64,000 bases of DNA from an uncultured Actinomycetes bacterium (GCA_963779025.1 CAVZWR010000019.1:321755-385754); one strand, 5' to 3'; shown: positions 1 to 25,104, counted from the stretch's first letter. Notes: a model not told the origin generated them from the sequence alone. Program-made: numbers and translations.

Positions 1-220
1 AGGCGACGATGCGACGGGTCGCCGAGCGGATCGGCATCGACTGGGCGCCGTCGCTCCTCCGGCCGACATTCAACGGCCGCCCGATCGGCGCGAACTCGAG
101 CGACCCGGCGGTGCAGGGCGAGGGGATCCTGCCCGAGCGCGCCGCCGCGTTCTCCGACGACCCCGCGCGATCGCCGAGCTCGCCGGCGACCGCTACGAGC
201 GGGCGGCCGCGCTCGCATGA
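1..220 (+). CDS. sulfotransferase, 3' end only (starts upstream of window; one frame change near 155-165)
   Basis: RIGIDWAPSLLRPTFNGRPIGANSSD..GILPER parallels the C-terminus of the 1622-3152 sulfotransferase (RIGIEMAPDLLVPTFNSRPIRANSSD..GILPER). The tail IAELAGDRYERAAALA* (cf. IERLAGDLYERATP) lies in a neighbouring frame. TGA 218-220 overlaps the next ATG (ATGA). Confidence 0.7.
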   Translation, partial: GDDATGRRADRHRLGAVAPPADIQRPPDRRELERPGGAGRGDPARARRRVLRRPRAIAELAGDRYERAAALA

Positions 221-1621
221 AGATCCTCTTCGTCCTCGAGCACCCGGGCGTCGGGCCGCTCGTGCCCGCGCTGCGGCTGCTCCACGAGCGCGGCCACGAC
301 GATCCACCTCGCCGCACGGCGGGTGAAGTCCGGCCACTCGCACAACGAGCTCCAGGCGCTCGCGGACGAATGCGAGCGGATCACGTACACGAAGCTCCCT
401 TCCGGGGGCGGGTCGAAGCTCGCGCGCGAGGTCCGGCTCGCGCTCGACTACCGCCGCTACCTGGAGCCGCGCTACCGCGACTCGCCGAAGCTGCGCGCGC
501 GGGCGGAGAAGGCCGCGCCGCCGCCGCCTCGCGCGCGTCGCCGGGCTCGCTGCTCCGCGCCGTCGAGCGCTCGCTGCCGCCGCCGGCGACAGTGCTCCGC
601 TACCTGCGCAAGGAGCAGCCGGACCTCGTGCTCGTCACGCCGCTGATCGACCTCGGCTCGCGCCAGGCCGACTGGCTGCGCGGCGGCGAAGCGGCTCGGC
701 ATCCGCACCGGCTTCCCGGTCTTCAGCTGGGACAACCTGACGAACAAGGGGCTCGTCCGCGACGAGCCCGACCTGACGCTCGTCTGGAACGACCTCCAGG
801 CCCGCGAGGCGGAGGAGCTGCACGGCGATCTCGCCCGCGCGGATCCGGATCACGGGCGCGCCGGTCGGCGACCCGTGGTTCGACTGGCGGCCGAGCCGCA
901 GCCGCGAGGAGTTCTGCGCCGAGGTCGGGCTCGACCCGTCGCAGCCGATCGTCCTCTACCTGTGCTCCTCCGAGTTCGTCGCGCCGAACGAGGTCGAGTT
1001 CGTCCCGCGCTGGCTCGAGCGCCTGCGCTCGCGCGGCGGGCTGCTCGCGGAGGCCGGCTACCTGATCCGGCCGTACCCGGACACCGCACAGCGCTGGGTC
1101 GCCGCCGGGCTCGACGGGCCGCAGGTGCGCGTCTGGCCGCGGTTCGGCGAGTCGCCCCACGACGACACCTCACGGCGGGACTACTTCGACTCGATCTACC
1201 ACGCGTCTGCGGTCGTCGGGATCAACACGACGGCGCAGATCGAGAGCGCGATCGTCGGCCGGCCCGTGCACACGATCCTCGCTGAGGAGTTTTCAGAGAC
1301 ACAGCAGGGGACCCTGCACTTCCGCTACCTCGAGGCGGCGGAGTTCGGGCTCCTCCACGTCGGGCGCACCTGGGACGAGCACGCGCGCGCAGCTGGAGGC
1401 CTCGCTCCGCGGCGAGGGCGACGACGGGCGGAACGAGCGGTTCCTGAGGCGCTTCGTCCGGCCGCTCGGGCTCGACCGGCCCGCAACGCCGCTCCTCGCC
1501 GATGCGATCGAGGAGCTCGGCGCAAGGCCCGCCCCGGCGCCGGAACACGAGCCCGGCCTACGCGCCGCTCGTCCGCCGGCTCGCCACGCGGCTCGCGGCC
1601 GACGGCGAGAAGCGGGAGAAA
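217..1621 (+). CDS. uncharacterised GT-B-like 'SWDNLTNKG' family protein, paralog 1; frame-disrupted (at least 6 frame changes), 3' end unresolved
   Basis: Starts MKILFVLEHPG. Segments in three frames align colinearly with the paralogs at 3149, 4694 and 17998 (FSWDNLTNKGL, SAVVGINTTAQIESAIVGRPV, GTLHFRYLE, FVRPLGLDRPATPLLADAIEEL). Frame changes near 300, 515, 680, 830, 1385 and 1545. No stop codon found before the next reading frame. Confidence 0.6.
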
Positions 1622-3152
1622 GTGCGCGAGCCGGAGCCCCGTCGGGGAGCTGCGGCGAACGATCGACCGGCTCGCGAGCGGCGATGCGCCGATCCTCGCG
1701 GGCCCCTGGACCGGCGACGAGATCGGCGAGCTCCTCTACTGGATCCCGTTCCTCCGCTGGGTCCAGACCGCGAACATCGGGCTGCGGGAGCGGCTGTACG
1801 TGCCGCGCGCGCCACAGCACGAGGTCTGGTACGCGGGGATCGGCGCGGGCACTGAAGCGCCCGAGGGCGCGAAGCGGCTCGACCCGCAGCTCGTCCTGGC
1901 CGCGCGCTCCGAGCTCGCCCGCCAGGATCCCGGCCTGCGCATCCAGCACCGTCTGCTCGAGTTCGCGCCGCTCCCCGGGGCCGGCCCGTACGAGGGCCCG
2001 TACGGTGTCGAGGCCTACCTCGCCGTGCTCGCCGGGCAGCCGGCCAGGGCGACCGGCGCAGAGAACGCCGACCCGGACGACCTGCTGGTCGCCGAGTCCT
2101 TCCTCGCGCGACCGCCGTTCGGACGCCTCGAGGTCGACCGGCCCCGCGCCGCCTGGGAGCGCCTGACCGAGCTCGAGGAGTACGAGGCACTGACCGAGAT
2201 GAGGTCGAACCAGCTCGTGCCGGTGCGTGAGCCGCTCGTCCTGATCTCGCAGATCCAGCGCTCGGGCGGGACGCTGCTCAGCCAGCTCTTCGACGGCCAC
2301 CCCGAGGTGCACGCCCACCCGCACGAGATCTGCATCGGCAAGCCGGACAAGTGGGACTGGCCGCCGCTCGACCTCGGCGCGCCCGAGACGTGGTTCGCGA
2401 CCCTGCACGAGCCGCTGCTCGCCGAGTGGATCGAGACGGGCTTCGTCAAGGATCTGACCGAGCTGCGCAAGCAGCGCGACCCGGACGTCTTTCCGTTCGT
2501 CTTCTCGCTCAAGCTCCAGCGCGCGATCTTCGAGCGCTGCGCGGCCGGCGCGACGACCGAGCGCGAGGTGCTCGACGCGTACTTCACCTCGTACTTCAAC
2601 GCCTGGCTCGACAACCACAACCTCTACACGGGCGCCAAGAAGGCCGTGGTCGGCTTCACGCCGCGGCTGGCGATGGAGCTCGACCGGGTCGAGCGGTTCT
2701 TCGCCGCCTACCCGGACGGCCTGCTGGTCTCGATCGTGCGCGACCCGCGCGGCTGGTACGCCTCTGCTCGGCGCCATCGCAAGTACTACGCCGACCTGGA
2801 GCAGTCGCTCGGGCTCTGGCGTGCCTCGACCGAGTCCGCGCTCGAGGCTGCGGACCGCCACGGCGACCGCGTGGTCGTCCTCACCTACGAGGCGCTGCTC
2901 GATGACCCGGAGGCGGCGATGTCGACGCTGGCCGCCCGGATCGGGATCGAAATGGCGCCGGACCTGCTCGTCCCGACCTTCAACAGCCGCCCGATCCGGG
3001 CCAACTCGTCCGATGCGGTCGAGCGCACCGGCATCCTTCCGGAGCGCCGCGACGCCTTTCGTGACGTCCTCACAGCTGACGAACTCGGGCAGATCGAGCG
3101 TCTGGCCGGCGACCTGTACGAACGGGCGACCCCGGTATCGTTCGCCACATGA
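1622..3152 (+). CDS. two-domain sulfotransferase: ~190 aa uncharacterised N-terminal domain plus PAPS-type sulfotransferase domain; start uncertain
   Basis: Open frame to TGA 3150-3152. P-loop-like motif LISQIQRSGGTLLSQL and 3'-phosphate-motif-like SIVRDPRGWYAS. N-domain contains APILAGPWTGDEIGELLYWIPFLRW. The only candidate start is GTG 1622 in a neighbouring frame (indel in the C-run at ~1637-1640); otherwise the ORF is fused to the preceding gene. Confidence 0.75.
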
Positions 3153-4697
3153 GCTCCAGGCCTCGCCTGCGAGTCCTTCTCTTCGCAGGCGGGCCTCGCT
3201 TCTACATGCGCCAGTTCTCCTCGCTCGTCACCGAGCTGTCGGCGCGCGGGCACGAGGTGCACGTCGCCTTTCAGCCGACCAAGGGCGAGCTGGACGAGTC
3301 GGCGAAGCAGCCCGGCGTGACGCACGGGTTCGCGCCGGCGCGGCCCGAGTCCGACGGCTGGCGCTCCGTCGCCTGGCTCGTGCGCGGGCTCGAGGATCTC
3401 GCGCGTTACACGCATCCGCGCTACGAGCGCGCGCCGGAGCTGCGGGAGCGAATGACCACGAAGATCGGCGCCCAGCTGCGGAAGTCGGGCGAGTTCGAGC
3501 CGGTCGTCCGCCGGCTCGCGCTGCGCCTCGTCCGCCGGCTCTCCGCCGGGCCGGACGCGAGGCTCTCGGAGCGCGTCATCCACCGCGCGGCCCGGCTCGA
3601 GCAGGCGATCCCGACGAGCCCGGAGATCGACGCGTACATCCGCGAGCGGGCGCCCGACGTCGTCCTCGCCACGCCGGTCGTCAACCGCGCATCGACCCAG
3701 GTCGAGTTCCTGAAGAGCGCGCGCCGCCTCGGGATCCCGTCCGGCACGCTCGTCGCGAGCTGGGACAACCTGACCAACAAGGGCCTGCTGAAGTGGGCGC
3801 CCGAGCGGGTCTTCGTCTGGAACGAGATCCAGGTGCGCGAGGCGGTCGAGCTGCACGGGATGCCGGCCGACCGCGTCGTCGCGACCGGCGCGCAGCTCTT
3901 CGACCCGTGGTTCGAGCGGCGGCCCTCGACCGAGCGCGGCGAGTTCGTTCGCCGTCTTGGTCTCGATCCGGCCGAGCCCTACGTCCTCTACACCTGCTCG
4001 AACCCGGCGATGACCGACATCGCGGAGTCGGGGTTCGTGACCGGGTGGATCGAGGCGCTTCGCTCGTCCGGCGACGAGCGGCTGCGCCGTGATCGGGATC
4101 GCCGTGCGCCCCCACCCCAACGACCTCGACCACTGGCGCGAGGTCGACCTCGCGCGCTTCGACAACGTCGCCGTCTGGCCCCGCGAGGGAACCTCGGTGG
4201 TCACCGACGACGCCCGCGCCGACTTCTTCGACTCGCTCGCGCACAGCGCGGCGGTCGTCGGGATCAACACGACGGCGATGATCGAGGCGGCGATCGTCGG
4301 CAAGAGCGTGCTCACGGTGCTCGCGCCCGGGTTCGCGCAGGAGAACACCCTCCACTTCGACTACCTGCTCGAGGAGAACGGCGGCTTCCTCCACGTCGCG
4401 CCGTCGCTCGACGAGCACGTCGGCCAGCTCTCGCACGTCCTCGACGAGGACGAGGAGGGCGCGGCGAGACGGCGCGCCTTCGTCGAGTCGTTCGTCCGCC
4501 CGCACGGGCTCGACCGGCCTGCGACGCCGATCCTCGCCGACGCGATCGAGGAGCTCGCCGGGCTGCCGGTGGAGCACTGGCGGCCCTCGGCGCTCCGGCC
4601 GGTGCTCGCGGCGGAGGCGGCGCTCTGCTCGCTCGCGGCCTCCCGGCCGAAGCAGGCCGGGGGCGGAAAGGCGCGGCGCGTCGGCGCCACGGCGTGA
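3149..4697 (+). CDS. uncharacterised GT-B-like 'SWDNLTNKG' family protein, paralog 2; frame-disrupted (1)
   Basis: ATGA overlap with the upstream stop. RVLLFAGGPRFYMRQ..ARGHEVHVAF and VASWDNLTNKGLLKW, then a frame change near 4085 into AVVGINTTAMIEAAIVGKSVLTVL..TLHFDYLLEENGGFLH..FVRPHGLDRPATP. Confidence 0.75.
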
Positions 4698-6282
4698 AGG
4701 TCCTCTTCTTCGTCCGCGAGCTGCCGTACGTGCAGCGGATCTACGCACCGCTCCTCGACGAGCTGATCGACCGCGGGCACACGGTTCATCTCGCCTTCAC
4801 GAAGAAGACGCGCTGGGACCGGATCGAGCGCGGGCTCGCCGGGATCGAGCGCGAGGGGTTGACGTTCGGCTACGCACCGCACCGGCGGCACGCCGACGGC
4901 TGGCGCCGCGTTGCCTGGCTCGTTCGCTCGGTCGCCGACCTCGCGCGCTACGCGCACCCGCGCTACGACAGCGCCCCCCGGCTGCGCAAGCGGGTGACCG
5001 AGAAGGTCCTCCAGCGGATCGAGACCGGGCCGTACCTGGAGCCGATCGGACGCTCGCTGGCGCTGCACATCGGCCGCAGGCTCGCCTCCGCGACCGACGC
5101 CGCGTACTCGGCGCGCGTGATCCGCAGCGCGGCGCGGCTCGAGCAGGCGGTGCCGACGAGCCCGGAGATCGACGCCTTCATCCGCACCCACGCACCCGAC
5201 GCCGTGATGGTCACGCCGGTCGTGAAGTACGGCTCCGACGAGGTCGAGTACCTGAAGAGCGCTCGCGCTCTCGGCGTACCCGCGGCGACCGCGGTCGCGA
5301 GCTGGGACAACCTGACGAACAAGGGCCTGCTCAAGTTCGACCCGGAGCGGGTGTTCGTCTGGAACGAGGCCCAGCGGCGCGAGGCGATCGACCTGCACGG
5401 GATCTCGCCCGAGCATGTCGGTCGCGACCGGCGGGCAGCTCTTCGACAAGTGGTTCGAGCAGCGGCCGAGCCGCTCGCGGGAGGAGTTCATGGCCGAGGT
5501 CGGGCTCGACCCGGCGGAGCCGTACGTGCTCTACCTGTGCTCGAGCCCGTTCGTCGTCCGCAAGCCGCAGGCCGAGATCGAGTTCGTTCTCCGGCTGCTG
5601 CAGGGGATGCGGGCGGGCGACGACGAGCGCTTGCGCGCGCACCGGCCTCGCTGGTGCGCCCGTACCCGCGCGGCTCGCAGTGGCGGAAGGTCGATCTCGC
5701 CTCGCACGGGAACGCAGCGTGGTGGCCGCCGAAGCACGCCTACGCGACCACGGAGCAGGGGATCGCCGACTTCTACGACTCGATCGCGCACAGCGCCGCC
5801 GTGGTCGGGATCAATACGACGGCGATGATCGAAGCGGCGATCGTCGGGAAGCCGGTGCTGACGATCCTGGAGCCGAAGTTCGCCCAGGAAGGGACGCTGC
5901 ACTTCCATCACCTGCTCGAGGAGAACGGCGGCTTCCTGCACACCGCGTCGTCGCTCGAGGAGCACCTCGGCCGGCTGGCCCGCGTGCTCGACGAGGGCGA
6001 GGAGGGCGCCGAGCGGCGGCGGCGGTTTGTCGAGGCGTTCGTCCGCCCGCGCGGGCTCGACCGCCCCGCGACGCCGATCTTCGCGGACGAGGTCGAAGAG
6101 CTTGCGAGCGCCAGGTCAGCCGACTCCGGCACTCGCCGCTGCTTCGCGCGCTGCTCGACGTCGAGGCGGCGGCCTGCACGGCCATGATCGTCGCGACGCC
6201 GCTGGTTCGCCCGCTGCGCCTTCGGCTGGTCGGAGCCGCCCGCAGCCGCGGGCTGGTCGCTCCGCCGACCCGCGTGCGCTAG
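4694..6282 (+). CDS. uncharacterised GT-B-like 'SWDNLTNKG' family protein, paralog 3; frame-disrupted (3)
   Basis: GTGA overlap with the paralog 2 stop. VKVLFFVRELPYVQ..RGHTVHLAF, VASWDNLTNKGLLKF, AVVGINTTAMIEAAIVGKPVLTIL, TLHFHHLLEENGGFLH. Frame changes near 5412, 5640 and 6105. Stop at 6280-6282. Confidence 0.75.
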
Positions 6283-6286
6283 CCGG

Positions 6287-7312
6287 TCAGACCTGCCAGC
6301 CGTAGCCGCCGAGGTCGATTCCGGTCAGCTCGGCCGTGACCCGGTTGCTTTCCACGTAGCGGTCGCCGACGATTTCGGCGGCGACTCGGTGGAGCGACTT
6401 CTCGTTCCGCGCGGCCACGGTCTCCGGGATCGCGACCTCGAAGAAGCGATGGCGCGACAGGCGCTTCAGAGTTCGGTGCTTGTCGAGGTCGACAAGCGGC
6501 GCCGGGTTCACTTCCGAGCGCACGAACCGGTTCAGGTGCCGGAGCACGAGCCGGGACGTCGGCGACAGCGTCCCTTGGACGTGCGTGTCGTACGGCAGCG
6601 AGTCGAGCACGGTCTGCCCGAGCGGCCGCCCGGCGAAGTCGGCGATCGCGGTGACGAACTCGCGCGGCTCGCGGACGAACTGCTCGTACGTCCGTACCAG
6701 CAACGCCTCGGGGCCGAACAGCTCGCTGTAGCGCCGGATCAGGTGGTGGTACTCGAAGTGGCGGAAGTCGAACCACGGCACGCGCAGGTTCGTCGTGAAG
6801 GGCGGATCGAGGAACTCGCGCAGCGACTCGGGCCCGCCTGCCTTCACGTACCGGCTGTAGTTCGAGACGATGGCGCTCCGCTGCTCGCGGATCACGATCA
6901 GCACCTGCCCTTCAGGGAAGACCTGCCGCAGTCGGTCGGCGATCGCTCCGCTGTCGTAGCCGCCCGAGACGGCGTGCCCCGAGAGGCGCTCGAACGAGAC
7001 GACCGGAACGAGACCGTCCGCGAGGATCGGCGCGAACAGGGCGTCGAACTCGGCGCGGGAGGCGCGCGGGTCCCACTCCGACCACCGCGCGAGGATCAGT
7101 TTTCGCACCGGGTGGTCGTCCGCCGCCTTGCCAACCCAGCGGAGACCGGTTCCGTCGCCGGCGAAGAGGAATTTCTGGAGCCAGCTCGACCCCGTGCGGT
7201 GGTAGCCGACGTGGACGAGGATCGCGTCAGGCAACCGGGGACTCCACCGCGTCCCCCCGGGCGCGCGCTCGGCCACGATCCCGAGCGCGGCCCGTTCGAG
7301 CGTGTCGGCCAC
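6287..7312 (-). CDS. sulfotransferase family protein
   Basis: Intact 341 aa ORF. LVHVGYHRTGSSWLQKF resembles the PAPS 5'-phosphosulfate loop and LIVIREQRSAIVSNYS the 3'-phosphate motif. GTG 7312 gives an 86-nt overlap with the upstream gene, so a later start is possible. Confidence 0.8.
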   Translation of the reverse strand: MADTLERAALGIVAERAPGGTRWSPRLPDAILVHVGYHRTGSSWLQKFLFAGDGTGLRWVGKAADDHPVRKLILARWSEWDPRASRAEFDALFAPILADGLVPVVSFERLSGHAVSGGYDSGAIADRLRQVFPEGQVLIVIREQRSAIVSNYSRYVKAGGPESLREFLDPPFTTNLRVPWFDFRHFEYHHLIRRYSELFGPEALLVRTYEQFVREPREFVTAIADFAGRPLGQTVLDSLPYDTHVQGTLSPTSRLVLRHLNRFVRSEVNPAPLVDLDKHRTLKRLSRHRFFEVAIPETVAARNEKSLHRVAAEIVGDRYVESNRVTAELTGIDLGGYGWQV

Positions 7313-8624
7313 CGTGAGCGCGTTCTCCCCGGAACTGGTCGACGAGCAGCGGCTGGCCCGGGTGGCACTGCCGCATTGCCATGTGCAGGAACTGCGCGAT
7401 CCGCTCCGGGTCGGGACGGAAGGCCAGCAGCTCCGGCACCTTCGCGTGGATGTCCGCGAACGAGTGGACGTCGAGCGTGACCCCGAACCCGGCGTAGTAC
7501 GGGTCGCCGAGGGTCAGCACCGGCTTGTCGTAGAGGAGTGCCTCGAGCCCGACGGTCGAGCCGATCACGACCACCCCCTCAGAGCGGCGGATCAGCTCGT
7601 GCGTGCTCGTGTACGGGTTGACCAGCCGGACGTTCGGCCGCCGGCGCAGGCGGTGCAGGAGGCGGAAGGAGTTACGCCCGAGCGACATCGGGTGCTCCTT
7701 CAGCACGAGGTCGTGGCCCTGCGGCAATGCGTCCGCGACCTGCTCGACGAGCGAGGCCTGGTCGGCGCAGTGAGGAACGATGCGCTGGATCTTGTAGTCG
7801 TCGGTGACGTGGAGCGGGAAGTAGACGAACGGCCGTCCCGGGTCGAGCTTGTCGTAGAAGGGCCGCGCCGCCCGAGCCCGCATCCACTCCGAGGCGTTCT
7901 GGTGCAGCAGCCGCCAGGGGCGGAGGTAGTCGTTCTCACGGTCGTCGCCCAGCTTGCGCTCGACGTGCCCGGCGAAGACCTTCGCGCGGCGGGCCTCGAC
8001 GGGGACGCGCCGGAAGTCGCGGATCGGCGTCGCCGCCTGCGTGAACGACGTCCGGAACGCCTCGACCTCCCGGCGCTCCTCCGGGGTCAGCTCGCGCAGC
8101 TCCTCGGGCGGCGCGATCTTCGCGTCGAGCGTGTCGACGTAGACGCGCAGTGGGTTCGGGAAGATCGTGTGCAGGATGAAGAGCACCGGGATCGAGTGCG
8201 CGTTCGCGACCAGGTGCGCGACGATCCGGATCGTCTCGTTCCCGATCTCGGGCAGCGCCACGTCCGGCTTGGTCTCGGCGACGATCCGCTCCAGGGCCCG
8301 GAAGCGGTCGACGGTGCGCCGGATGCACCACTCCTCCGGCCGTCCCGCGCACGCCTTGTCGTTGCGGTAGACGTCGCGGAGGTGCGGGATCGGGTAGGTC
8401 GCCTCGATCCGGCGCACCTGCGCCTCGAGGTCGACCGGCGCGGCGAGCTCGGCGATCACGTCCTGGATCGCGCGCGCGTCGACGCCCCGGGAGCGCAGCT
8501 CCCTGGCAGCGCGCGGCGACTCGGTGAGATGGACGACCGAGTGGCCGCGCCGCTCGAGCTCGCGCCCGACGACGCCGTAGAACTCGCTCTCGTAGGTCTG
8601 GAGGCTGGTGATCAGGAACCGCAT
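7227..8624 (-). CDS. capsule polysaccharide biosynthesis protein, KpsS/KpsC (Capsule_synth)-like
   Basis: 465 aa ORF. RPFVYFPLHVTDDYKIQ, LVLKEHPMS and VVVIGSTVGLEALLYDKPVLTLGDPYYAGFG match the signature blocks I recall for KpsS/KpsC. The last ~35 aa are Arg/Ala-rich and overlap the next gene, so the true C-terminus may be in another frame. Confidence 0.75.
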   Translation of the reverse strand: MRFLITSLQTYESEFYGVVGRELERRGHSVVHLTESPRAARELRSRGVDARAIQDVIAELAAPVDLEAQVRRIEATYPIPHLRDVYRNDKACAGRPEEWCIRRTVDRFRALERIVAETKPDVALPEIGNETIRIVAHLVANAHSIPVLFILHTIFPNPLRVYVDTLDAKIAPPEELRELTPEERREVEAFRTSFTQAATPIRDFRRVPVEARRAKVFAGHVERKLGDDRENDYLRPWRLLHQNASEWMRARAARPFYDKLDPGRPFVYFPLHVTDDYKIQRIVPHCADQASLVEQVADALPQGHDLVLKEHPMSLGRNSFRLLHRLRRRPNVRLVNPYTSTHELIRRSEGVVVIGSTVGLEALLYDKPVLTLGDPYYAGFGVTLDVHSFADIHAKVPELLAFRPDPERIAQFLHMAMRQCHPGQPLLVDQFRGERAHGGRHARTGRARDRGRARARGDAVESPVA

Positions 8625-13546: not shown

Positions 13547-14398
13547 CTACCGTCGGAGCACGAGGTTCAGCGACGGCACCTCGCGTGCCCGCTCGAGCAC
13601 CGCCGACCGCGTGCTCGGCTCGAGGCTCGCCGTTCCGGTGCAGCAGGCAGAGCTCGAACCCGAGCGACTCGTAGAACGCGAGCACCTCCTCCGGGGACTC
13701 GCCGCCGACGTGCGGCTCGTTCGCGGAACTCGACGACCGCCGCGAGCACCGGGCTGCGCTCGAGGATCGCCGAGGCGCCGCGCAGGACGAGCGGCTCCGC
13801 GCCCTCGACGTCGATCTTCAGCACGTCCACCTCGCCCTGGGGGACGAGCTCGTCGAGCGTCGCCGCGCGCACCTCGATCCCCGTGCCGCCGATCTGCGCG
13901 CCCGAGCGGTGTGCGGCATCCAGCTCGATCCGCACCGGCCCCGAGCCCGTCGGATGCGGCCGCGGCGACGACCTCGACGTCCGCGCCGTGGCGCCAGACG
14001 TTCGCCCGCAGCAGCTCGAGCGTCCACGGCACCGGCTCGACCGCGACCACGTGCGCGCCGAGCTGCGCGCCGAACACCGCGTGGAAGCCGACGTTCGCGC
14101 CCACGTCCACGAACAACGATCCGGGCCGGAGGAACCGTGCGAGCAGCTTCATCACGTCCGCCTCCCAGACGCCCTGGCTGCGGATCCACGGCGTCAGGTG
14201 CTCGTCGGCGGAGTCGAACCAGAGCGTGCCGATCGCCGTGTCGAGCTCGACTGCCTCCGGGGGCAGCGAGGGAACCGGCCCCTCGGGCAACGGCGTGTGC
14301 TTCCGCATCCGCCGCCGGAAGCCCGCCAGCGCGGGCCGCACGAAGCGCGCGCGCCCCCTCCGGAACACGCTCCCAGACCGCCCACGCAAGCTCCGCAC
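13547..14398 (-). CDS. FkbM-family methyltransferase; frame-disrupted (3)
   Basis: LFVDVGANVGFHAVFG, then VLKIDVEGAEPLVLRGA and LAFYESLGFEL in other frames, returning to the tail SAVLERAREVPSLNLVLRR*. Start is GTG 14398 or ATG 14308. Confidence 0.7.
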   Translation of the reverse strand: MRSLRGRSGSVFRRGRARFVRPALAGFRRRMRKHTPLPEGPVPSLPPEAVELDTAIGTLWFDSADEHLTPWIRSQGVWEADVMKLLARFLRPGSLFVDVGANVGFHAVFGAQLGAHVVAVEPVPWTLELLRANVWRHGADVEVVAAAASDGLGAGADRAGCRTPLGRADRRHGDRGARGDARRARPPGRGGRAEDRRRGRGAARPARRLGDPRAQPGARGGRRVPRTSRTSAASPRRRCSRSTSRSGSSSACCTGTASLEPSTRSAVLERAREVPSLNLVLRR

Positions 14399-14429
14399 GC
14401 CCGGGGTCGTAACACAGCTGGTACGGGGC

Positions 14430-14435
14430 TACCAT
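14430..14435 (+). promoter_or_regulatory. -10-like box, leaderless arrangement
   Basis: TACCAT lies 6 nt upstream of GTG 14442. No Shine-Dalgarno sequence. Confidence 0.35.
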
Positions 14436-14441
14436 CAGGAC

Positions 14442-15449
14442 GTGGCGGAGAACGAAGCGATCCCGGCGAAGGTCGCCGAGAGCGAGGACACGATCGGCGC
14501 CCTCGGCATCGCCGGCAGGAGCGATTACGAGCAGCTGAACGCCTGGCCGCGCAAGCGCTGGCACGCGCTCGGCGCCAATCTCTACCCGAGCGAGCAGGAG
14601 CTCTTCGAGGGCGACCTCGGGCAGCTGATCCGCGAGCACGTGATCACCGGGTGGGCGCCGAAGGAGCCGCTGCTCGGGATCGACGACTCCGTCTACACGC
14701 TGGGCTCGTGCTTCGCGCGCGAGCTGCTCCGCTACCTGACGAAGGCGGGCGTCTCGTCGAAGCGCGTCTGGATCCCGTCCGGCCTGAACAACAGCTTTGC
14801 GATCCTCGACTTCTTCTCGTGGTGCGCGACCGGCCAGGAGACGGGCCGCGGCTTCCGCTACGACCGGCTCGAGACCGGCGAGATCGTCGAGTGGAAGCCC
14901 GAGGGGGAGCGCCAGGCCTACGTGGACGAGTTCGCGAAGGCGGGGGCGTTCGTGTTCACGTTCGGGCTCGCGGAGGTCTGGGAGGACAAGGAGACGGGCG
15001 GCGTCTTCTGGCGCGGCGTCCCCGAGGAGATCTTCGACGCCGACCGGCACGTGTTCCGGCTGAGCTCGGTCGAGGAGAACGCCGCCAACATCAGGCAGAT
15101 CATCGAGCACTGCCGCGCGATGAACCCGGACGCCCCGGTCGTGCTCACGCTGTCGCCGGTGCCGCTGATGGCCACGTTCCGTGACGTTTCCTGCATCACC
15201 GCCGACGCCGTCTCGAAGTCGGTGCTGCGCGTGGCGCTCGACCAGGTGATGCGCGACGAGCGCGAGGGCGTCTACTACTGGCCGTCGTACGAGGTCGTGA
15301 AGTGGGTCGGCCCGCACCTCGACTGGCCGGCGTACGGGCTGCACAACCGCAAGCCCCGCGACGTCTCCAAGAAGCTCGTCGCCGCGATCATCGACGCCTT
15401 CGTCGACTCCTACTACACGCCTGAAGCGGTCGCGCAGCTCCGCCGCTAG
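14442..15449 (+). CDS. GSCFA family protein, copy 1
   Basis: Intact 335 aa from GTG 14442. Eponymous motif YTLGSCFAREL, plus FVFTFGLAEVWEDKETG and VVLTLSPVPL. Confidence 0.85.
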   Translation: MAENEAIPAKVAESEDTIGALGIAGRSDYEQLNAWPRKRWHALGANLYPSEQELFEGDLGQLIREHVITGWAPKEPLLGIDDSVYTLGSCFARELLRYLTKAGVSSKRVWIPSGLNNSFAILDFFSWCATGQETGRGFRYDRLETGEIVEWKPEGERQAYVDEFAKAGAFVFTFGLAEVWEDKETGGVFWRGVPEEIFDADRHVFRLSSVEENAANIRQIIEHCRAMNPDAPVVLTLSPVPLMATFRDVSCITADAVSKSVLRVALDQVMRDEREGVYYWPSYEVVKWVGPHLDWPAYGLHNRKPRDVSKKLVAAIIDAFVDSYYTPEAVAQLRR

Positions 15450-15919: not shown

Positions 15920-15980
15920 TTCGTAAATAATCTGTTTCGAAAGCAGGAAGCGCCGGTCCCGTAGGTAACCTCGACGCTGG

Positions 15981-16975
15981 ATGCTCGCTCGCGCGCGCAA
16001 CCTCGCCCGGCGAATCCGCAGGCCAGAGGCGAAGAAGCTTCCCTCGACGCGGAGGGCATGGGGCCCGGAACGGTGGTACGGCGAGGGGGTCGTCCTGTAC
16101 CCGGCACGGCGTGAGGCATTCGACGCCGACCTCTCCGAAGTGATCCGTGAGCACGCGCTCGTCGGGCACGTTCCCTCCGAGCCCATACTCGGCGCCGGCG
16201 ACAGCGTGGTCGCGATCGGTTCCTGCTTCGCCGGCGAGCTGCGGAAGTACCTCCGGCTGGCGGGCTTGGAGTCGAAGCGGATCTGGGTGCCGGAGGGGCT
16301 GAACAACACCTATGCCCTGCTCGACTTCCTCACCTGGGCGGTCACGGGCAAGACGACGGGCACCGGCTTCCGCTACGACCGTGACCGCAACGGGAAGATC
16401 CGCGAGTGGCTGCCGGACGAGCCGAAGAGCCGTTACTCCGAGCGCCTGCGCGGAGGCCGGTGCACTCGTCTTCACGATCGGCGTTGCGGAGGTCTGGCAG
16501 GACAAGGAGACGGGAGGGGTCTTCTGGCACGGCGTCCCGCGCCAGGTCTACGAAGCGAACAGGCACGTTCACCGGCTGACCACCGTCGAGGAGAACGCGG
16601 CGAACATCCGCAAGATCGTCGACTTCGTCCGGAGCGTGAATCGCACCGCCCCGATCGTGCTGACGCTCTCACCCGTGCCGCTGAAGGGCACCTTCCGCGG
16701 GATCTCGAGCCTGAGCGCGGACTGCGTCTCGAAGTCGGTGCTGCGGGTGGCGATCGACCAGGTGATGTCGGACGCGCGGCCGGGCGTCTATTACTGGCCG
16801 TCGTTCGAGATCGTCAAGTGGGCGGGCGCCGAACCTGAGGTGGCCCGCCTACGGCCTCGACGACGGGAAGACGCGCCACGTGACCCGGCGGCTGGTCGCC
16901 GCGATCATCGACGCGTTCGTCGAGACGTTCTTCGTGCCGGAGGCGCTCGAGACGATCCGCCGTCGCGCTGCGTAA
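15981..16975 (+). CDS. GSCFA family protein, copy 2; frame-disrupted (2)
   Basis: VVAIGSCFAGELRKYL, LVFTIGVAEVWQDKETGGVFW, IVLTLSPVPL, tail LVAAIIDAFVETFFVPEALETIRRRAA*. Frame changes near 16450 and 16830. Confidence 0.8.
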
Positions 16976-16988
16976 CTACATTCCCCCC

Positions 16989-17993
16989 GTGACAGCCGTC
17001 CTCTTCACCTGCGCCGGGCAGCGCGTGGACGTCGTCACCGCGTTCTCGCGGGCGGGCGGGCACACCGATCGCGGTCGACGCGAACCCGCTCGCGCCGGCG
17101 ATCTACCACGCCGACGTGCCACGCGGTCGTTCCGCGGATCGACGACCCGGCCTACCTGCCGGCGCTCCAGGAGCTGATCGCCGAGCACGACGTGAAGCTC
17201 GTCGTCCCGCTCACCGACCTCGACCAGCTGCTGCTCGCCGAGCACCGCGACGAGATCGAAGCGGTCGTGCTGCTCCCCGATCCCGACGTCGTTCGGCGCA
17301 CCGCGCGACAAGTACCTCGCGCATCTCTTCTTCGAGGAGCGCGGCATCCCGTCGCCGCCGAGCTGGCTCCCCGAGGAGTTGCCGGACGACCTCGAGTTCC
17401 CGGTGCTCGTCAAGGCGCGGTTCGGGTTCGGCTCGCGCGACATCTTCCGCGCGAACGACCGCCGCGAGCTCGAGTTCTTCCTCGGCTACTCGCAGGCCGA
17501 CTCGTTCGTCCAGCGCGTCTGCCCGGGCGAGGAGTTCTCGATCGACGTCTTCTGCGATCTCGACAGCCGCTGCCTGAACTCGATCCCGCGGACGATGATC
17601 GAGTCGAAGGGCGGCGAGTCGATCAAGGGGATGACGATCAAGGACCCGGAGCTGATCGACTTCGGCCGCCTCGTCGCGGAGGAGCTCGGGATCCGCGGGC
17701 CGGCGAACGTGCAGTGCTTCCGCGTCGCTCCCGGCCGCCACGAGGTCACGGACGTCAACCCGCGCTTCGGCGGCGCCTTCCCGCTCCCGCGCGCGGCCGG
17801 CAGCCGCTACCCGGAGCTCGCGCTCGCGCTGGCGCGGGGCGAGCGCCCGGAGCCGCGGCTCGGCGAGTTCCGGGAGGGCGTCGTGATGACCCGCTTCTTC
17901 TCGCACCTCTCGCTGACCGCCGACGGCGGCGGGCGGCTGGAGCCGTTTGCGGAGGAGTTGCCCGAGCCGGTCGCGGGCGAGCCCGCCGCCTAG
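16989..17993 (+). CDS. ATP-grasp domain protein (carboxylate-amine ligase type); frame-disrupted (3)
   Basis: Starts at GTG 16989. Three single-base insertions relative to the 15466 copy (near 17065, 17119, 17305) restore the original frame. FPVLVKARFGFGSRDIF, EEFSIDVFCD, ANVQCF..VTDVNPRFGGAFPL. Confidence 0.8.
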
Positions 17994-17997
17994 AGCG

Positions 17998-19497
17998 GTG
18001 CGGGTCCTCTTCTTCGTCGACCGCCCGGGCGTCCTCCGCCAGTTCGCCTCGCTGGTCACCGAGCTCGCGGCGCGCGGGCCACGACGTCCACCTCGCGCTC
18101 CGCTCGGAGCCGGACGAGGACCAGCAGCCACAGGTCGAGCGGCTCGTCGGCGCGTCGCCGCACGTCACCTCCGGCCCGGCGCCGGCACGCGACCAGCGCG
18201 ACGGCTGGCGGCCGGTCGCGTGGGCTGTTCGGGCGCTCGGCGACCTGGCCCGCTACGCGCAGCCGCGCTACGCGAACGCGCCGATGTTGCGCGCCCGCGT
18301 CACCGGCAAGGTCGTCCGCCGCTTCGAGCGTGCGACGGAGCTCGAGCCCGATCGGGCGGCGGCTTGCGTCTGCGCCTCGCCCGCCGGCTCGCTGCCGGCG
18401 ACTCCCAGCTCGCCGAGAGCGTGATCCGCACGACCGCGAGGCTGGAGCGCGCGATCCCGTCGAGCCCGGCGATCGACCGCTACGTCCGCGAGCAGCAGCC
18501 CGACGTCGTGCTCGCCACCTCCGTCGTCAAGCTCGCCTCGCCGCAGGTGGAGTTCCTGAAGAGCGCCCGCGCGCTCGGCATTCCCGCCGCGACGCTGGTC
18601 GCGAGCTGGGACAACCTGACGAACAAGGGTCTGCTCAAGTGGCAGCCGGAGCAGGTCTTCGTCTGGAACGAGATCCAGCGGCGGGAGGCGATCGAGCTCC
18701 ACGGGATGCCGCCGGACCGCGTGACCGCGACCGGCGCCGGGCTCTTCGACACCTGGTTCGACCGCCGCCCGAGCGGCCCGCGGGACGACTTCGTCCGCGC
18801 CATGGGCCTCGATCCCGAGCGCCCATACGTCCTCTTCCTCGGCTCCAGCCCCTTCGTGACCAACCACTCCGACGAGGAGGTGCGCTTCGTCGAGCGGTGG
18901 ATCGAGGCGCTGCGCGCGTCACCGGACGAGCGCGTCCGCGGCGCGAGCGTGGTCGTGCGCCCGCATCCGGTCGGCAAGGGCTGGCGCGACGCGGACCTCG
19001 CGCGCTTCGAGAACGCCGTCGTCTGGCCGCGCCACTCGGAGCGGCCGGTCTCCGCCGAGGAGCACGACACGTTCTACGACTCGCTCGCCCACAGCGCCGC
19101 GGTGGTCGGGATCAACACGACTGCGATGATCGAGGCGGCCGTGGTCGGCAAGAGCGTCCTCACCGTCCTGGCGCCGGAGTTCGGCCAGGAGAGCACGCTC
19201 CACTTCCACTATCTGCTCGAGGAGAACGGCGGCTTCCTGCACGTCGCCTCCTCGCTCGACGAGCACGCGGAGCAGCTCGGCCGGGTCCTGGAGGACCGCG
19301 CCGAGGACGCCGAGCAGCGCCGCCGCTTCGTCGAGTCGTTCGTCCGGCCGCACGGGCTCGACCGGCCGGCGACGCCGATCTTCGCCGACGCGGTCGAGCA
19401 GCTGGCGTCGGCGCGGGTCGCCGCCACGGGGCGCACGGGCCTGCTCCGTCCAATGCTCGCGATCGAGGCTACTCTGGCGAGGCGGCGGCTCCGCTAG
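17998..19497 (+). CDS. uncharacterised GT-B-like 'SWDNLTNKG' family protein, paralog 4; frame-disrupted (2)
   Basis: VRVLFFVDRPGVLRQFASLVTELAARG / HDVHLAL.. / VASWDNLTNKGLLKW, AVVGINTTAMIEAAVVGKSVLTVL, TLHFHYLLEENGGFLH. Frame changes near 18075 and 18350. Confidence 0.75.
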   Translation: MRVLFFVDRPGVLRQFASLVTELAARGPRRPPRAPLGAGRGPAATGRAARRRVAARHLRPGAGTRPARRLAAGRVGCSGARRPGPLRAAALRERADVARPRHRQGRPPLRACDGARARSGGGLRLRLARRLAAGDSQLAESVIRTTARLERAIPSSPAIDRYVREQQPDVVLATSVVKLASPQVEFLKSARALGIPAATLVASWDNLTNKGLLKWQPEQVFVWNEIQRREAIELHGMPPDRVTATGAGLFDTWFDRRPSGPRDDFVRAMGLDPERPYVLFLGSSPFVTNHSDEEVRFVERWIEALRASPDERVRGASVVVRPHPVGKGWRDADLARFENAVVWPRHSERPVSAEEHDTFYDSLAHSAAVVGINTTAMIEAAVVGKSVLTVLAPEFGQESTLHFHYLLEENGGFLHVASSLDEHAEQLGRVLEDRAEDAEQRRRFVESFVRPHGLDRPATPIFADAVEQLASARVAATGRTGLLRPMLAIEATLARRRLR

Positions 19498-19524: not shown

Positions 19525-20993
19525 GTGGAGGGAGTGAGGAGGGGTTGCATCGCGCTGTGCCTGGTCGCGGCGTTCCTCGCGGGCTGCGGCGGCAAGCACG
19601 CGGCGCCCCCGCCGCCGACCGTCGTAAAGCCGGTGCACCACCGGCCCGTAGTGAAGCGCCACCGCGTGGTCGTCACCGTCCTCGACGGCGACACGGGCCG
19701 GCGGGTGCACGGCGCCCTCGTCCGCATCGGTCGGCCTCGCCGACCGCGCGAACCCGAAAGGGAACGCCGAGCTCAGCCTGCGGCGGCTCGCCCCGCTCGT
19801 CGTGACGGTCCGCGCGCGCGGCTACGGCGACCTCGAGCTGCGGCTCCCCTTCCAGCGCAAGCGCCGCGTCGTCGTCCGCGTCTACCACGAGAACCTCCAG
19901 TGGCCGATGTACGGCGCGACCCCCGCGCGGACGCAGGCGCACCTGGCAATCCGCGTCAGGCCGCCCTTCCGCGTCGTCTGGAGCCGCGGCCTCGGCACCC
20001 TGATCGAGTTCCCGGCGGTCGTCTCGGACGGCGTCGCGTACATCGGGAACAGCCACGGCACCGTGCGGGCGATCTCGATGCGGAACGGGCGCGTGCTCTG
20101 GCGCCGCGACATCCGCCACGGGAAGATGGCCGCCTCGCCCGCGGTCGTCGGCGACGACCTGGTCGTCCACGGGATGGACGGCGTCGTCCGCGTGCTCGAC
20201 CGGCGCACCGGGCGCCGGCCGTTGGCGCGTTCCACGTCGGCTCGCCGATCGAGTCGTCACCGCTCGTCCGCGACCGGATCGACTACTTCGGCGCCTGGAA
20301 CGGCAACGTCTACGCGCTCGACCTGCGCACGCGAAAGCTGCGCTGGGTCTACGGCTCCGGCTGGAAGATCACCTCCAGCGCCGCGATCGCCGACCGGACG
20401 CTCTACATCGGCAACTACGGCGGCAGGCTGCTCGCCCTCGCGCCCGGGAGCGGGCGGCTGCGCTGGTCGGCCGGCGTCAACGGGCGGATCTACGGGACGC
20501 CCGCGGTCTGGGCCGGCCGCGTGTTCGTGCCCTCCTCCGACGGCGGCTCGCTGACCGCCTTCACGACGCGCGGCGCGCTACCTCTGGCGCGATCCACACG
20601 GGCGGCTACGTCTACTCCTCACCGGCCGTCTGGGCGCGGTCACGTCTACTTCGGCTCCTACAACGGACGGCTGTACAGCGCCTCGGCGCGCACCGGGAGC
20701 GTCCGCTGGTCGGTGCAGACCGGCGGGCCGGTCTCGGGCGCCCCGGCGGTCGTCGACGGGGTCGCCTACGCCGGCAGCTTCGCGAACCGGATCGTCGGCG
20801 TCGACGCCGACAGCGGCCGCACCTGCTCCGCTTCCCGCACGGCGAGTACGTGCCCGTCTCCGGGAGCGGCGGCCGGCTGCTCCTGCACGGCTATTCGCGT
20901 GTGTACGCGGTGGAGCCATCGCAATCCCGGTCGAAATCACTCGTTCGAGTGACAGCCGCGCGTCGAGCCGTATTTGCAGGGAAATCTCCTTGA
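19525..20993 (+). CDS. PQQ-like beta-propeller repeat lipoprotein with N-terminal Ig-like region; frame-disrupted (~7)
   Basis: Lipobox LVAAFLAGC. Propeller blades (AVVSDGVAYIGNSHGTVRAISMRNGRVLW, YFGAWNGNVYALDLRTRKLRW, GHVYFGSYNGRLYSASARTGSVRW, APAVVDGVAYAGSF) are spread over three frames. End is 20952 or 20993. Confidence 0.7.
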
Positions 20994-22108: not shown

Positions 22109-23009
22109 CTACGGCGCGTTCGCTGCGACCCGTGCGAACGCCGGCCGACCGGCGACGTCGAGCGGGCGGAACCGCCGGGTCACGACGGCGCCCAGCCGCC
22201 GGCTGATCATCCGCACCACGCGCCCGTTCGCCACGCCGTAGAGCCGGTACTCGCGGACCGCCGGGCTCCAGAGCGCGGACGGGCTCCCCGGGGACAGGTG
22301 GGCGACACAGCCGTCCTTGTACTTGCCGCGCAGGTCACGCCCCGTGAGGAGGTGGAGGCAGCCTGCCGGCCCGCGGAGGAGCGCCGCCCAGCCGGTCGCG
22401 GTGCGGAAGAGCGCGGGCGGGCCGAGCGTGGCCGCGGGAGCGACGCTGATCACGACGCGGTTGCCGGGGTCGCCCGCGAAGGCCGTGCCGTCGCTGCCCG
22501 GGCACCTCGGTCGCGGTGCGGAGCTTGACGCAGGACCTGCCCGGCGGCCGGGCAGGCGTTCGTCGCCGGCTCGAACCGCAGGCTGTACAGCAGGACGAGC
22601 GCGCCGTTCTCGTCGACGGCGAAGCTCGGCGCGAAGCTGCCGGCGGTCGCGCGTGCCGCGTCCTCCGGCGAGCCGAGCTGGACGGTGTAGGGGACGGCTG
22701 CCTTCTCGGCCAGGGAGCCGCCGGCGCCGACCGCGAAGCGATGCACCGTTCCGGAGAGGCCGTCGGCGTTCAGCGTCGGCTGGTCGTAGACGTAGAGGAT
22801 CGACCCGCGGCGGACGGGGGCCGGCTGCGAGCCCGCCCAGGAGGCGACCGGAGCGCTGAAGCGGACGCCGTCGCTCGAGGTGAGCAGGGACGAGGTTCCG
22901 TCGCCGGAAACGGCGAGCAGGATACGCGACCGGCCGCGTGGCCGGCTCGGCCGCCGGGAACCGCCAGTGCGAGTGCGCACAAGGCCAGGAGCAGGACTTT
23001 TCCGCTCAT
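22109..23009 (-). CDS. secreted hypothetical protein; frame-disrupted (2)
   Basis: ATG 23009 with signal peptide MSGKVLLLALCALALAVPG. One Asp-box-like SSDGVRF. Three track fragments join colinearly (frame changes near 22930 and 22535). Confidence 0.6.
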
Positions 23010-23041
23010 CGGCGCTAACCTTGCCCGAGGCATCGGTCGCC

Positions 23042-24351
23042 ATGCGCCTCGTCTTCGTCGCATCTGCCACCGTCGCGCTCCTCGCCGTTTCCGCCGCCGG
23101 ATCGGCCGTGCGCCCCACCTCCCGCTGCGCTGATCGCGAAGGGAATTGCCCGCGCCGACCTGACGCCGGCGGAGAAGGCGGAGTACGCCGCCGTGCTCGC
23201 GCGCGCGCGCTCGGAGGTCAAGCGGCTGCCGAAGGCCCGCGCCGATCTGCTGCGGAAGGTGATCGCGGACGTCGCCGCGCAATGGCGCTCCTACACGAGC
23301 CCGCGCGCTCTCGCTCTCTTCTCGACGCTCGCCTTCAACGAGCGCTGGCTCGCCGGGCACGCGGTCGAGGGGAGCCACCCCGACCTGACCGGCGACGACG
23401 GCGTCGTCTACCGGTTCTTCTGGTCGCACGGCTACGTCTTCCACCCGCTCGCGAACTTCGCGAAGCTGAACGAGCTCGCGGCGCGAGGCGACGACGAAGG
23501 TGCCGTCCGGCTCGCGCAGGCACTGCTCGCGCGGGCGATCCCGCGCGGCGACGGGCTCGTCTGGGAGTACGAGTTCCCGTTCGCGTCCGGCCGCGCGCCG
23601 TGGACGTCCGGCATGGTGCAGGCCGTCGCCGCCCAGGCGCTCGCCCGCGCCGGCGACCATGCTCAGCGACCAGACGCTGCTCGACGCGGCCGACGCCGCC
23701 TACGCCGCGGTGCCCGGGCTGCTCTCGTCGGGCTCGCCCGCCAGGCCGTGGGTCGCGCTCTACAGCTTCGACCGCGTTCCGGTTCTGAACGCGCAGCTCC
23801 AGGCGGCGCTTTCCCTGGGCGACTACGCCGAGCTCACCGGCGACCCTGACGCGCAGGCCTTCGCCGATCGCCTGACCACGTCCGCGCAGACCCTGCTGCC
23901 GCGCTTCGACACCGGCTACTGGTCACGCTATTCGCTCCATGGTGACGATTCGCCCCTCCACTACCATGACTACGTGATCGCGCTGCTCCGCAAGCTCGCC
24001 GCCCGCACGGGCGACGCGGCTTGGAGCGACACGGCCGACCGCTTCCTGGCCTACGAGACGCAGCCGCCGGTGCTCAAGCTGGGCGGCACCCCGGCGACGC
24101 TCCGTCGTCACGCGAGCGCGAAGTTCAGGTTCTGGCTCTCGAAGACCTCGACGGTGACGCTCCGGGTCGGGAAGGCGGTGCTCAGCGGGACGCTCGGCCA
24201 CGGCTCGCACACCTTCGTCTGGGAGCCGAAGAACGCCGTCCCGGGCACGTACCACCCGCGGCTGACCGCCGTCCCGGTGATGGGCCCATCGATTCAGAAG
24301 GCTCTTCCGCCGGTCAAGATCGCCCACGGCAAGGCCCTGAAGCCTCGATGA
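23042..24351 (+). CDS. secreted D-glucuronyl C5-epimerase-like protein (C5-epim_C type) with C-terminal beta-sandwich; frame-disrupted (2)
   Basis: Signal peptide MRLVFVASATVALLAVSAAGSA. Blocks YVFHPLANFAKLN, RAPWTSGMVQAVAAQALARA, VLNAQLQAALSLGDY and FDTGYWSRYSL..HYHDYVIALLRKL parallel the heparan-sulfate C5-epimerase C-domain. Frame changes near 23120 and 23655. Confidence 0.75.
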
Positions 24352-25093: not shown

Positions 25094-25104
25094 GCTGGAG
25101 ATGG

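Follow-up and report, generated by a model that had tools for sequence, protein, structure and literature searches.

A very large GT-B-type protein family with a putative cytidine-donor motif, interleaved with and fused to sulfotransferases in an uncultured actinobacterium

We describe here a family of proteins, which we call F, found in a 64,000-nucleotide stretch of DNA from an uncultured Actinomycetes bacterium (GCA_963779025.1 CAVZWR010000019.1:321755-385754; the whole of this stretch is referred to as ‘the window’), where four copies of F, named A to D, are encoded among sulfotransferase genes (S) and where one of them is joined to the remnant of a second domain, which we call X. The window has a G+C content of 70-75%, with long open stretches in every frame, such that a listing of open reading frames (ORFs) is uninformative when taken alone; the copies were located through a plot of GC content by codon position (third position, GC3) combined with three-frame translation, and the frames were then joined by hand. 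All four copies lie on the plus strand, at ~217-1600 (A), 3149-4697 (B), 4694-6282 (C) and 17998-19497 (D). After frame repair the four proteins align end-to-end, with identities of 62% for B/D, 57% for B/C, 57-58% for C/D and 40-41% for A against the others, and pairwise BLASTP comparisons return E-values from 1e-95 to 0, far beyond chance. The four paralogs reported in a first-pass annotation, made from the sequence alone, are thus real; the motif blocks it listed are all present (strict in B, C and D, looser in A), as are the 4-nt overlaps at the gene junctions, seen as ATGA at 217, ATGA at 3149 and GTGA at 4694. In a neighbour-joining tree, copy A groups with orthologs that are themselves F-x-S fusions, within a clade of X-fused copies, and B, C and D each cluster with orthologs from other metagenome-assembled genomes (MAGs); the duplications are therefore older than these lineages.

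Copies B, C and D are stand-alone F genes. The start codon (ATG) of B, a protein of ~515 aa with the motif RPHP and a single frame change at ~4053-4102, overlaps the stop of the fusion gene that precedes it, and its ortholog in locus L001 is an intact 510-aa gene. Copy C (~530 aa, motif RPYP; frame changes at ~5385-5440, 5624-5669 and 6097-6154) starts with a GTG that overlaps the stop of B, and has L011_4852 as its ortholog; on comparison of synteny, neither C nor the minus-strand sulfotransferase at 6290-7351 has a counterpart in L001, a locus of 87% identity. Copy D (498 aa, motif RPHP), when set against the 95%-identical contig L005, shows three one-base insertions, at 18079, 18350 and 18367; its repaired form is matched along its full length (100% coverage, 94-96% identity) by orthologs P0001-P0006, which are intact and likewise of 498 aa.

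Copy A, by contrast with its earlier description as a stand-alone gene ending at 1621, does not end there: with the inserted bases removed, its frame path continues without a stop through a basic linker and into a sulfotransferase. The resulting gene (217-3152, plus strand; ~975 aa) comprises F, an X remnant with linker and a Sulfotransfer_3 domain (2223-3146), the remnant being the N-terminal part of domain X (GPWTGDEIGELLYWIPFLRW), encoded at 1686-1850. Its frame changes fall at ~275-324, 532-540, 665-717, 840-868, 1363-1412, 1538-1566 and 1620-1660, and its F signature motif reads RPYP, not RPHP. In three loci from short-read MAGs (L009, L032 and L033), F, a 56-residue X remnant and S sit in a single uninterrupted ORF, and we therefore take 217-3152 to be one F-x-S gene; on the JGI contigs L001-L003, a gene call of 975 aa ends at the equivalent of 3152. 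A 975-aa ORF in L026 was dropped as proof of the fusion, as it begins in the wrong frame and L026 is itself frameshifted. The identity of the S domain is clear from its match to Sulfotransfer_3 (PF13469), at 55.5 bits against a cut-off of 27, over residues 229-466 of the translation of 1560-3149, and its homologs carry the source names sulfotransferase or LPS (lipopolysaccharide) sulfotransferase NodH. The first-pass annotation had three of the four copies alternating with sulfotransferase genes by way of 4-nt overlaps; the overlaps stand, but the alternation is only in part correct, the actual order being S, A-S fusion, B, C.

None of the four copies is an intact ORF within the window, with ~7 frame changes in 217-3152, one in B and three each in C and D. 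Compared to contig L005 over 16.4-20.6 kb, the window carries a one-base insertion approximately every 400 nt, in all genes; the inserted base is often a C that turns GG into GCG or sits in a run of G (examples at 16451, 16827, 17068, 18079, 18350 and 20574). Across the full 64 kb, 76 frame changes were counted between overlapping, same-strand coding fragments supported by GC3, and nearly every gene is broken; the intervals quoted here derive from such fragments, tblastn placement being imprecise and merging frames. GC3 is maintained at 0.9-0.99 in each shifted segment, and no in-path stop codons were found in the shifted window copies. Because the insertions hit all genes of the window, we take the frameshifts to be assembly errors and the genes to be presumably functional; the window looks like an unpolished long-read assembly. 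Programmed frameshifting was ruled out, since the one-base insertions relative to close relatives affect all genes. The closest genome is the MAG ‘uncultured Actinomycetes bacterium MFD07639.bin.2.20’, at 95-96% nucleotide identity, with farther matches in Gaiellales, Gaiellaceae and Thermoleophilia.

The family extends well beyond this lineage: a profile search of 1.84 billion cluster representatives returned 6,356 clusters (at 50% identity) at E<=1e-3, of which 1,900 at E<=1e-30. Tests against named families were made with 46 diverse F members, as well as with single window copies. Neither Pfam nor NCBIfam gave a match above threshold, whether for single proteins or for the 46 members, and searches of the PDB by sequence and by profile were empty; Pfam gave a borderline match to Glyco_transf_4 on residues 11-87, and 20 of the 46 match this model weakly in the N-terminal lobe. 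As every curated threshold tested was missed, F is no member of any named family, which agrees with the earlier statement that these proteins could not be placed in one. An AlphaFold2 model of F, built on a 30-sequence alignment, has a predicted local distance difference test (pLDDT) score of 89.5 and a predicted template-modelling (pTM) score of 0.89, and displays two Rossmann-like lobes with the typical order of strands and helices, to which are added a helical insertion of ~95 residues at 70-165 and a C-terminal helix. A Foldseek search of the PDB gave 197 matches at E<=1e-3, the first 50 of which are without exception proteins of the glycosyltransferase B (GT-B) type: UDP-N-acetylglucosamine (UDP-GlcNAc) 2-epimerases come first (E 5e-9), followed by GT1 enzymes and WaaG, with TM-scores of ~0.65 on the target and ~14% identity. 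We consider the assignment of the modelled fold to GT-B to be solid, its sub-class not being fixed by structure; the suggestion that these proteins are distant GT-B relatives is thereby supported.

At the level of sequence profiles, the closest named relative of the C-terminal lobe is the Capsule_synth family (PF05159), represented in the window by the KpsC/KpsS-like gene at 7227-8624. When F was compared by hhalign to a Capsule_synth-like family seeded from that gene, a match with a probability of 89.8% (E 1.8e-6, 164 columns) was found to span the entire C-terminal lobe, aligning RPHP with KEHP and the F block ‘AVVGINTT...GKPVLT’ with ‘VVVIGST...DKPVLT’ of the Kps-like proteins, such that the C-terminal resemblance remarked upon in the first-pass annotation holds in a profile-profile comparison. 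The PF05159 model itself gives no match at E<=1 in the 46 diverse members, nor in copies B and D; the likeness to its nucleotide-binding lobe, with (K/R)XHP, comes from hhalign and from the motif. Capsule_synth includes the KpsC/KpsS retaining beta-Kdo (3-deoxy-D-manno-octulosonate) transferases of GT107 and the KpsS1 pseudaminyltransferase of GT118. F has in common with it a GT-B-type architecture and a C-lobe containing (K/R)XHP, a G-x-[ST]-[ST] loop followed by a helix, the ‘GKPVLT’ strand and C-terminal helices, and both families occur in polysaccharide loci of the ABC-transporter type, one Capsule_synth gene lying near copy C. Unlike Capsule_synth, however, F has an N-lobe that is unrelated at the sequence level, the two N-lobes failing to align by hhalign, and F alone possesses the ~95-residue helical insertion and a Q-x-G-T-L-H-F insert, both of which the Kps-like family is without.

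A second link runs through the N-lobe. NF046086, the BFO_1060 family, is matched weakly by 45 of the 46 members (best E 2.6e-10), with 27-35 bits against a cut-off of 200 and over model positions 41-180 of 365; on F, the match covers residues ~160-293, this being the second half of the N-lobe and including the SWDN segment. We regard this homology as real but remote, as judged from the profile match. BFO_1060 is homologous to Tanf_01245 and TFUB4_00887, deletion of which removes the terminal pseudaminic/legionaminic acid (Pse/Leg) of the Tannerella O-glycan, and its homologs are thus genetically supported Pse/Leg transferases of Tannerella forsythia, with HP motifs and described as TagB-like (PMC5420450). 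Like F, this family of putative transferases combines an HP motif with neighbouring genes for nonulosonic acids; unlike it, F is without the D/E-D/E-G motif, is multi-copy and is found in soil phyla, and the match is confined to a third of the model.

The HP motif is a prominent feature of the F alignment, in which R320, P321 and H322 are invariant and P323 is conserved at >=90%; RPHP is present in 60 of 68 F copies examined. A structural paper of 2026 (PMC12887879) describes (K/R)XHP as a motif that retaining Kdo transferases (GT99/107) and sialyltransferases (GT29/38/42/52/80) have conserved, and in which the Lys/Arg bonds to cytosine; F carries it in its C-terminal lobe, with copies A and C reading RPYP. 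Bacterial sialyltransferases (GT38/52/80) and retaining Kdo transferases (GT99, GT140) also resemble F in their GT-B-like fold and in their association with NeuABC, but have no detectable sequence similarity to it (the PDB profile search being empty) and are absent from the Foldseek top 50. Further invariant residues of F are N372 (in the G-I-N-T-T loop), E378 (in the helix that follows), H401 and, as the conserved acidic site of the N-lobe, the Asp of S-W-D-N; in all, ~25 polar/aromatic residues are invariant across phyla, which would fit a catalytic enzyme.

Genome context was sampled at 76 loci from GTDB species representatives, counting features within 10 kb of the query F gene; six-frame ORFs were scanned with purpose-built hidden Markov models (HMMs) for F, X and sulfotransferase, and neighbours were also clustered without prior labels. 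F is characteristically multi-copy, with at least two copies at 62 of the 76 loci and at least three at 48, a median of 4 in loci of at least 18 kb and a maximum of 9 in 21 kb. Domain X is present at 47 loci, an ABC-2 (KpsM/Wzm-like) permease at 31, NeuA, NeuB or NeuC at 26 (a raw count, without a background rate; 18 of the 36 loci of at least 18 kb), a sulfotransferase of the window’s subfamily at 23 and a Kps-like gene at 16, with Neu genes and sulfotransferase found together at 7. The first-pass annotation had proposed paired transfer and sulfation steps. Within this lineage the pairing is borne out by the gene fusion and by the alternation of S with F-X in a syntenic contig (L082-L084); across genomes it is less general, S being found at only 23 of the 76 loci, with X, the ABC-2 exporter and NeuA/B/C all commoner partners of F. 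The sulfotransferase pairing is, in other words, real but a lineage-specific add-on.

The association with nonulosonic acid genes, which is to be seen only beyond the window and escaped the first-pass annotation, can be intimate. At locus L046, NeuA-NeuB-NeuC lies directly between F genes, beside an F-X plus S module, and a reciprocal search from NeuB led to a locus (L086) in which NeuA-NeuB-NeuC has around it an ABC-2 permease, one X and as many as four copies of F, and in which a TagD-like cytidylyltransferase is also present. With a related NeuB as query, the best 120 of >7,500 matches included no entry from the window’s own 481,853-bp contig. On a plasmid of Rhizobium sp. WL3 (L085, NZ_CP042825, 621533-633976), a distant F homolog (E 2e-21) directly follows the series NeuB-KpsF-GT-NeuC-NeuA; the same cluster is preceded by four other ‘hypothetical’ proteins with HP-type motifs and without a match to the F HMM, so that five such proteins, each of 449-513 aa and with HP-type motifs, surround it.

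The architectures of 148 cluster representatives divide into F alone (78), F-X (41), tandem F-F(-F) (29, namely 28 direct tandems and one F-X-F) and F-sulfotransferase (1). X, the commonest fusion partner of F and also a stand-alone gene, is ~300 aa long and is marked by the motif GPWxSEVGFELLYWIPFLRW and, towards its C-terminus, by FVGTYGGLSYLAP; a full copy occupies residues ~600-890 of P0151. It has no relative in Pfam, NCBIfam or the PDB, beyond faint matches to heptosyltransferase I (E 0.013) and TIGR04372 (E 0.051), each in 1 of 15 members. Its model consists of two small Rossmann-like halves; hhalign found no relation between F and X, and the Foldseek match list for an F-X model is dominated by the F lobe.

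Gene order over 1-28 kb of the window runs S, F-x-S, F, F, S (minus strand), Capsule_synth (minus), GT4 (minus), FkbM methyltransferase, GT4, GT2, Bac_transf, FkbM methyltransferase (minus), two GSCFA genes, ATP-grasp, F, PQQ-propeller, C5-epim_C, Polysacc_deac_1, PQQ-propeller, Wzz-like protein and GT2. The locus thus has a Bac_transf and a Wzz-like gene, whereas the recurrent partners of F elsewhere are ABC-2, Kps-like and NeuABC genes. The first S is the 3' end of a sulfotransferase (1-220, plus strand; HMM match at 3-323, frame change at ~181-185), whose stop codon (TGA, 218-220) shares bases with the ATG that starts at 217; the gene is complete in the 96%-identical locus L026, which also has two extra F-X plus S modules just upstream of the window start. 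The syntenic contig (124.7 kb) adds an ABC-2 permease, two F genes and three F-X/S alternations in the upstream direction. The further sulfotransferase (6290-7351, minus strand) is convergent with copy C and matches both Sulfotransfer_3 (35.9 bits) and Sulfotransfer_1 (34.2 bits) above their cut-offs; the Capsule_synth gene beside it (7227-8624, minus strand) was assigned by PF05159 on its L001 and L082 orthologs. Synechan (xss) and other bacterial sulfated-polysaccharide loci are likewise described as combining glycosyltransferases with several sulfotransferases.

Directly 5' of copy D is a PylC-like ATP-grasp gene (16953-17993, plus strand), which in every relative examined (L001, L004, L005 and L082) lies 3-7 nt upstream of the D-type copy; this adjacency hints at coupling of the two steps, an acidic sugar being, for instance, amidated or acylated. 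The segment 15464-15857 duplicates the 5' part of the ATP-grasp gene (16967-17360, ~390 nt), and there are two tandem GSCFA-family genes at 14337-15446 and 15975-16972; duplicate and GSCFA pair fall within a 2.5-kb segment that is absent from L001 and that looks like a local duplication or insertion. The C5-epim_C (glucuronyl C5-epimerase-like) and Polysacc_deac_1 genes (23009-25008, plus strand), assigned by Pfam on the syntenic L001 and L082 genes and mapped by blastn, would be polymer-modifying enzymes accompanying the sulfotransferases. As an aside, this single locus of an actinobacterial MAG brings together a C5-epimerase-like gene, a deacetylase and several sulfotransferases, the same set of enzymes by which animals modify heparan sulfate. 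Two PQQ-type beta-propeller genes (19525-20952 and 25078-26402) are kept within the locus in all syntenic relatives. A promoter/terminator scan of 1-20 kb gave nothing above shuffled expectation. Unrelated genes at 28-31 kb are followed by a second, separate polysaccharide locus at 31-64 kb (31212-64000), with a Wzy_C polymerase/ligase, a Wzx-like flippase, a second Bac_transf, many GT4 genes, GDP-mannose 4,6-dehydratase and epimerases (6-deoxyhexose enzymes), a GT-C (PMT_2-like) membrane protein and tandem paralogs at 61967-63091 and 63058-63999.

Drawing on these findings, we propose that F represents, within the (K/R)XHP clan, a new family of GT-B proteins, which uses cytidine-activated donors in the assembly of surface polysaccharides of the ABC-transporter type; this is the reading we favour, with a confidence a little better than even. 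That F is a glycosyl or ulosonyl transferase of one kind or another is, in our judgement, highly probable; that its donor is activated by cytidine mono- or diphosphate (CMP/CDP) we hold to be, on balance, probable; that the donor is specifically a nonulosonic acid or Kdo is a possibility we place somewhat short of even, and for the copies in the window we would call it doubtful. In the scheme we envisage, the C-terminal Rossmann lobe would bind the nucleotide-activated donor, with the R-x-H-P motif, the GINTT loop and the helix glutamate holding the nucleotide and its phosphate, and both acceptor binding and the catalytic carboxylate would be the province of the N-terminal lobe (with the Asp of S-W-D-N and the ~95-residue helical insertion). 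CMP-nonulosonic acid or CMP-Kdo would be the most likely donor and a CDP-polyol a less likely one. Several specialised F copies may act one after another, with a lipid-linked glycan on the cytoplasmic side of the membrane as their substrate, within a pathway of the ABC-transporter type and often together with X as a second Rossmann-type domain. In this actinobacterial lineage, the products of F would then be sulfated, through a sulfotransferase of the type dependent on 3'-phosphoadenosine-5'-phosphosulfate (PAPS) that is fused to one F copy, further S genes alternating by way of translationally coupled 4-nt overlaps. We also speculate, tentatively, that F, often with X, transfers or polymerises nonulosonic acids (of the legionaminic/sialic-acid type) or Kdo, and that in F-X-S modules each ulosonic-acid transfer is coupled to a sulfation step of its own, so as to yield a sulfated sialic-acid-like polymer.

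Several observations weigh against this proposal. All sources annotate members of F as ‘hypothetical protein’; every match to a named family is far under its curated cut-off (<=35 bits against 200 for NF046086); and, in structure, F comes closest to UDP-GlcNAc 2-epimerases and GT1 enzymes rather than to any sialyl- or Kdo-transferase, and this at a TM-score of only ~0.65. No tripeptide corresponding to the D/E-D/E-G motif of sialyltransferases occurs among the conserved N-lobe columns of F. The replacement of His by Tyr (RPYP) in copies A and C recurs in orthologs from uninterrupted loci (L032_7038, L009_6961, L033_1344 and L011_4852) and is, by this conservation among aligned orthologs, a real feature of a subfamily. 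The count of NeuABC near F, at 26 of 76 loci, is a raw one. For the window copies, the main weakness of the donor assignment is a local one: no NeuA/B/C, Kdo-pathway or CDP-polyol gene was found in the 64-kb window, nor any in ~41 kb of the syntenic contig L082-L084.

The alternative that fares best is that F is an ordinary glycosyltransferase of the GT1/GT4/GT28 kind using nucleoside diphosphate (NDP)-hexoses (UDP-, GDP- or dTDP-sugars), with R-x-H-P and the NeuABC neighbours being coincidental in large polysaccharide loci. Such an enzyme would suit the weak Glyco_transf_4 match on the N-lobe in 20 of 46 members, the presence of GT1 enzymes and WaaG among the top Foldseek matches, and the window locus, in which the sugar-nucleotide enzymes are all of the NDP-sugar kind (GDP-mannose dehydratase, epimerases) and a CMP-sugar pathway is absent. 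We nonetheless consider it unlikely, if deserving of serious attention, given the consistent remote homology to families with CMP donors (the Capsule_synth C-lobe; BFO_1060 in 45 of 46), the invariance of a (K/R)XHP motif that is tied to cytosine binding, and the fact that, of the well-covered loci, one in two has NeuABC at a distance of no more than 10 kb.

CDP donors also bear cytosine and are thus compatible with R-x-H-P, which brings into consideration a TagF/TagB-like polyol-phosphate or glycosyl-phosphate transferase, using CDP-glycerol or CDP-ribitol to build a teichoic-acid-like polymer (the ‘phosphoglycosyl’ option of the first-pass annotation). The relatives of BFO_1060 described as TagB-like, the TagD-like cytidylyltransferase in L086 and the fact that the 50 best Foldseek matches of the F-X model include TagF (3l7l) and 8qoy, a capsule polymerase resembling TagF, all point this way, as do weak matches of single members to Glyphos_transf (PF04464). 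These matches, however, are few, with one member out of the 46 and one out of 10 long members, and below threshold (P0149, 17.1 bits against 22.1), and genes for CDP-polyol synthesis, of which the window has none, are not among the recurrent neighbour families, whereas NeuA/B/C are; we rate this option as improbable.

It seems more improbable again that F is no transferase at all, and is instead an enzyme akin to the nucleotide-sugar 2-epimerases, or else a GT-B scaffold without catalytic activity, serving to place sulfotransferases and X on the polymer. UDP-GlcNAc 2-epimerases (PF02350) do, along with GT1, give the best superpositions on F, and the PF02350 model is weakly matched by 4 of 46 members (best E 0.0013); the change of His to Tyr in the signature motif of two window copies might also be read in this way. 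The superpositions are at ~14% identity, however, and the PF02350 matches all fall under the 30.6-bit cut-off. Multi-copy arrays (up to 9 copies in 21 kb), fusions such as F-F-F and the R-x-H-P motif set F apart from the epimerases, the arrays and fusions suiting linkage-specific transferases rather than an epimerase; F loci already have a bona fide epimerase in NeuC, and the ~25 polar/aromatic residues invariant across phyla argue for catalysis. Lastly, that the window copies are decaying pseudogenes with real frameshifts, as the interruption of every copy might imply, is barely credible in view of the equal density of one-base insertions in all window genes (76 frame changes in 64 kb), the GC3 of 0.9-0.99 in each shifted segment, the lack of in-path stop codons and the intact orthologs at 94-96% identity.

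Sulfated and sialic-acid-type glycoconjugates have been detected chemically in many environmental biofilms and granular sludges, and sulfated sialic-acid-like polymers would represent a class of bacterial glycan seen chemically in biofilms without known biosynthetic genes. Families of CMP-ulosonic-acid transferases are still defined singly, GT118 and GT140 being examples (PMC12887879); the present analysis points to a very large family without a curated model (>6,000 clusters at 50% identity) that bears the cytidine-donor motif. The existence of a cultured carrier of F, Svornostia abyssi J379, makes the idea directly testable; its locus L067 brings together F, X, S, NeuB, a Kps-like gene and an ABC-2 permease in a span of 21 kb. 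Should F indeed prove to be a GT-B family that uses cytidine-activated donors, then it would be one with a broad distribution among soil bacteria (Actinomycetota, Acidobacteriota, Planctomycetota and Verrucomicrobiota), would provide such polymers with candidate genes in these abundant and poorly cultured phyla, and may offer new enzymes for making sulfated or sialylated glycans.

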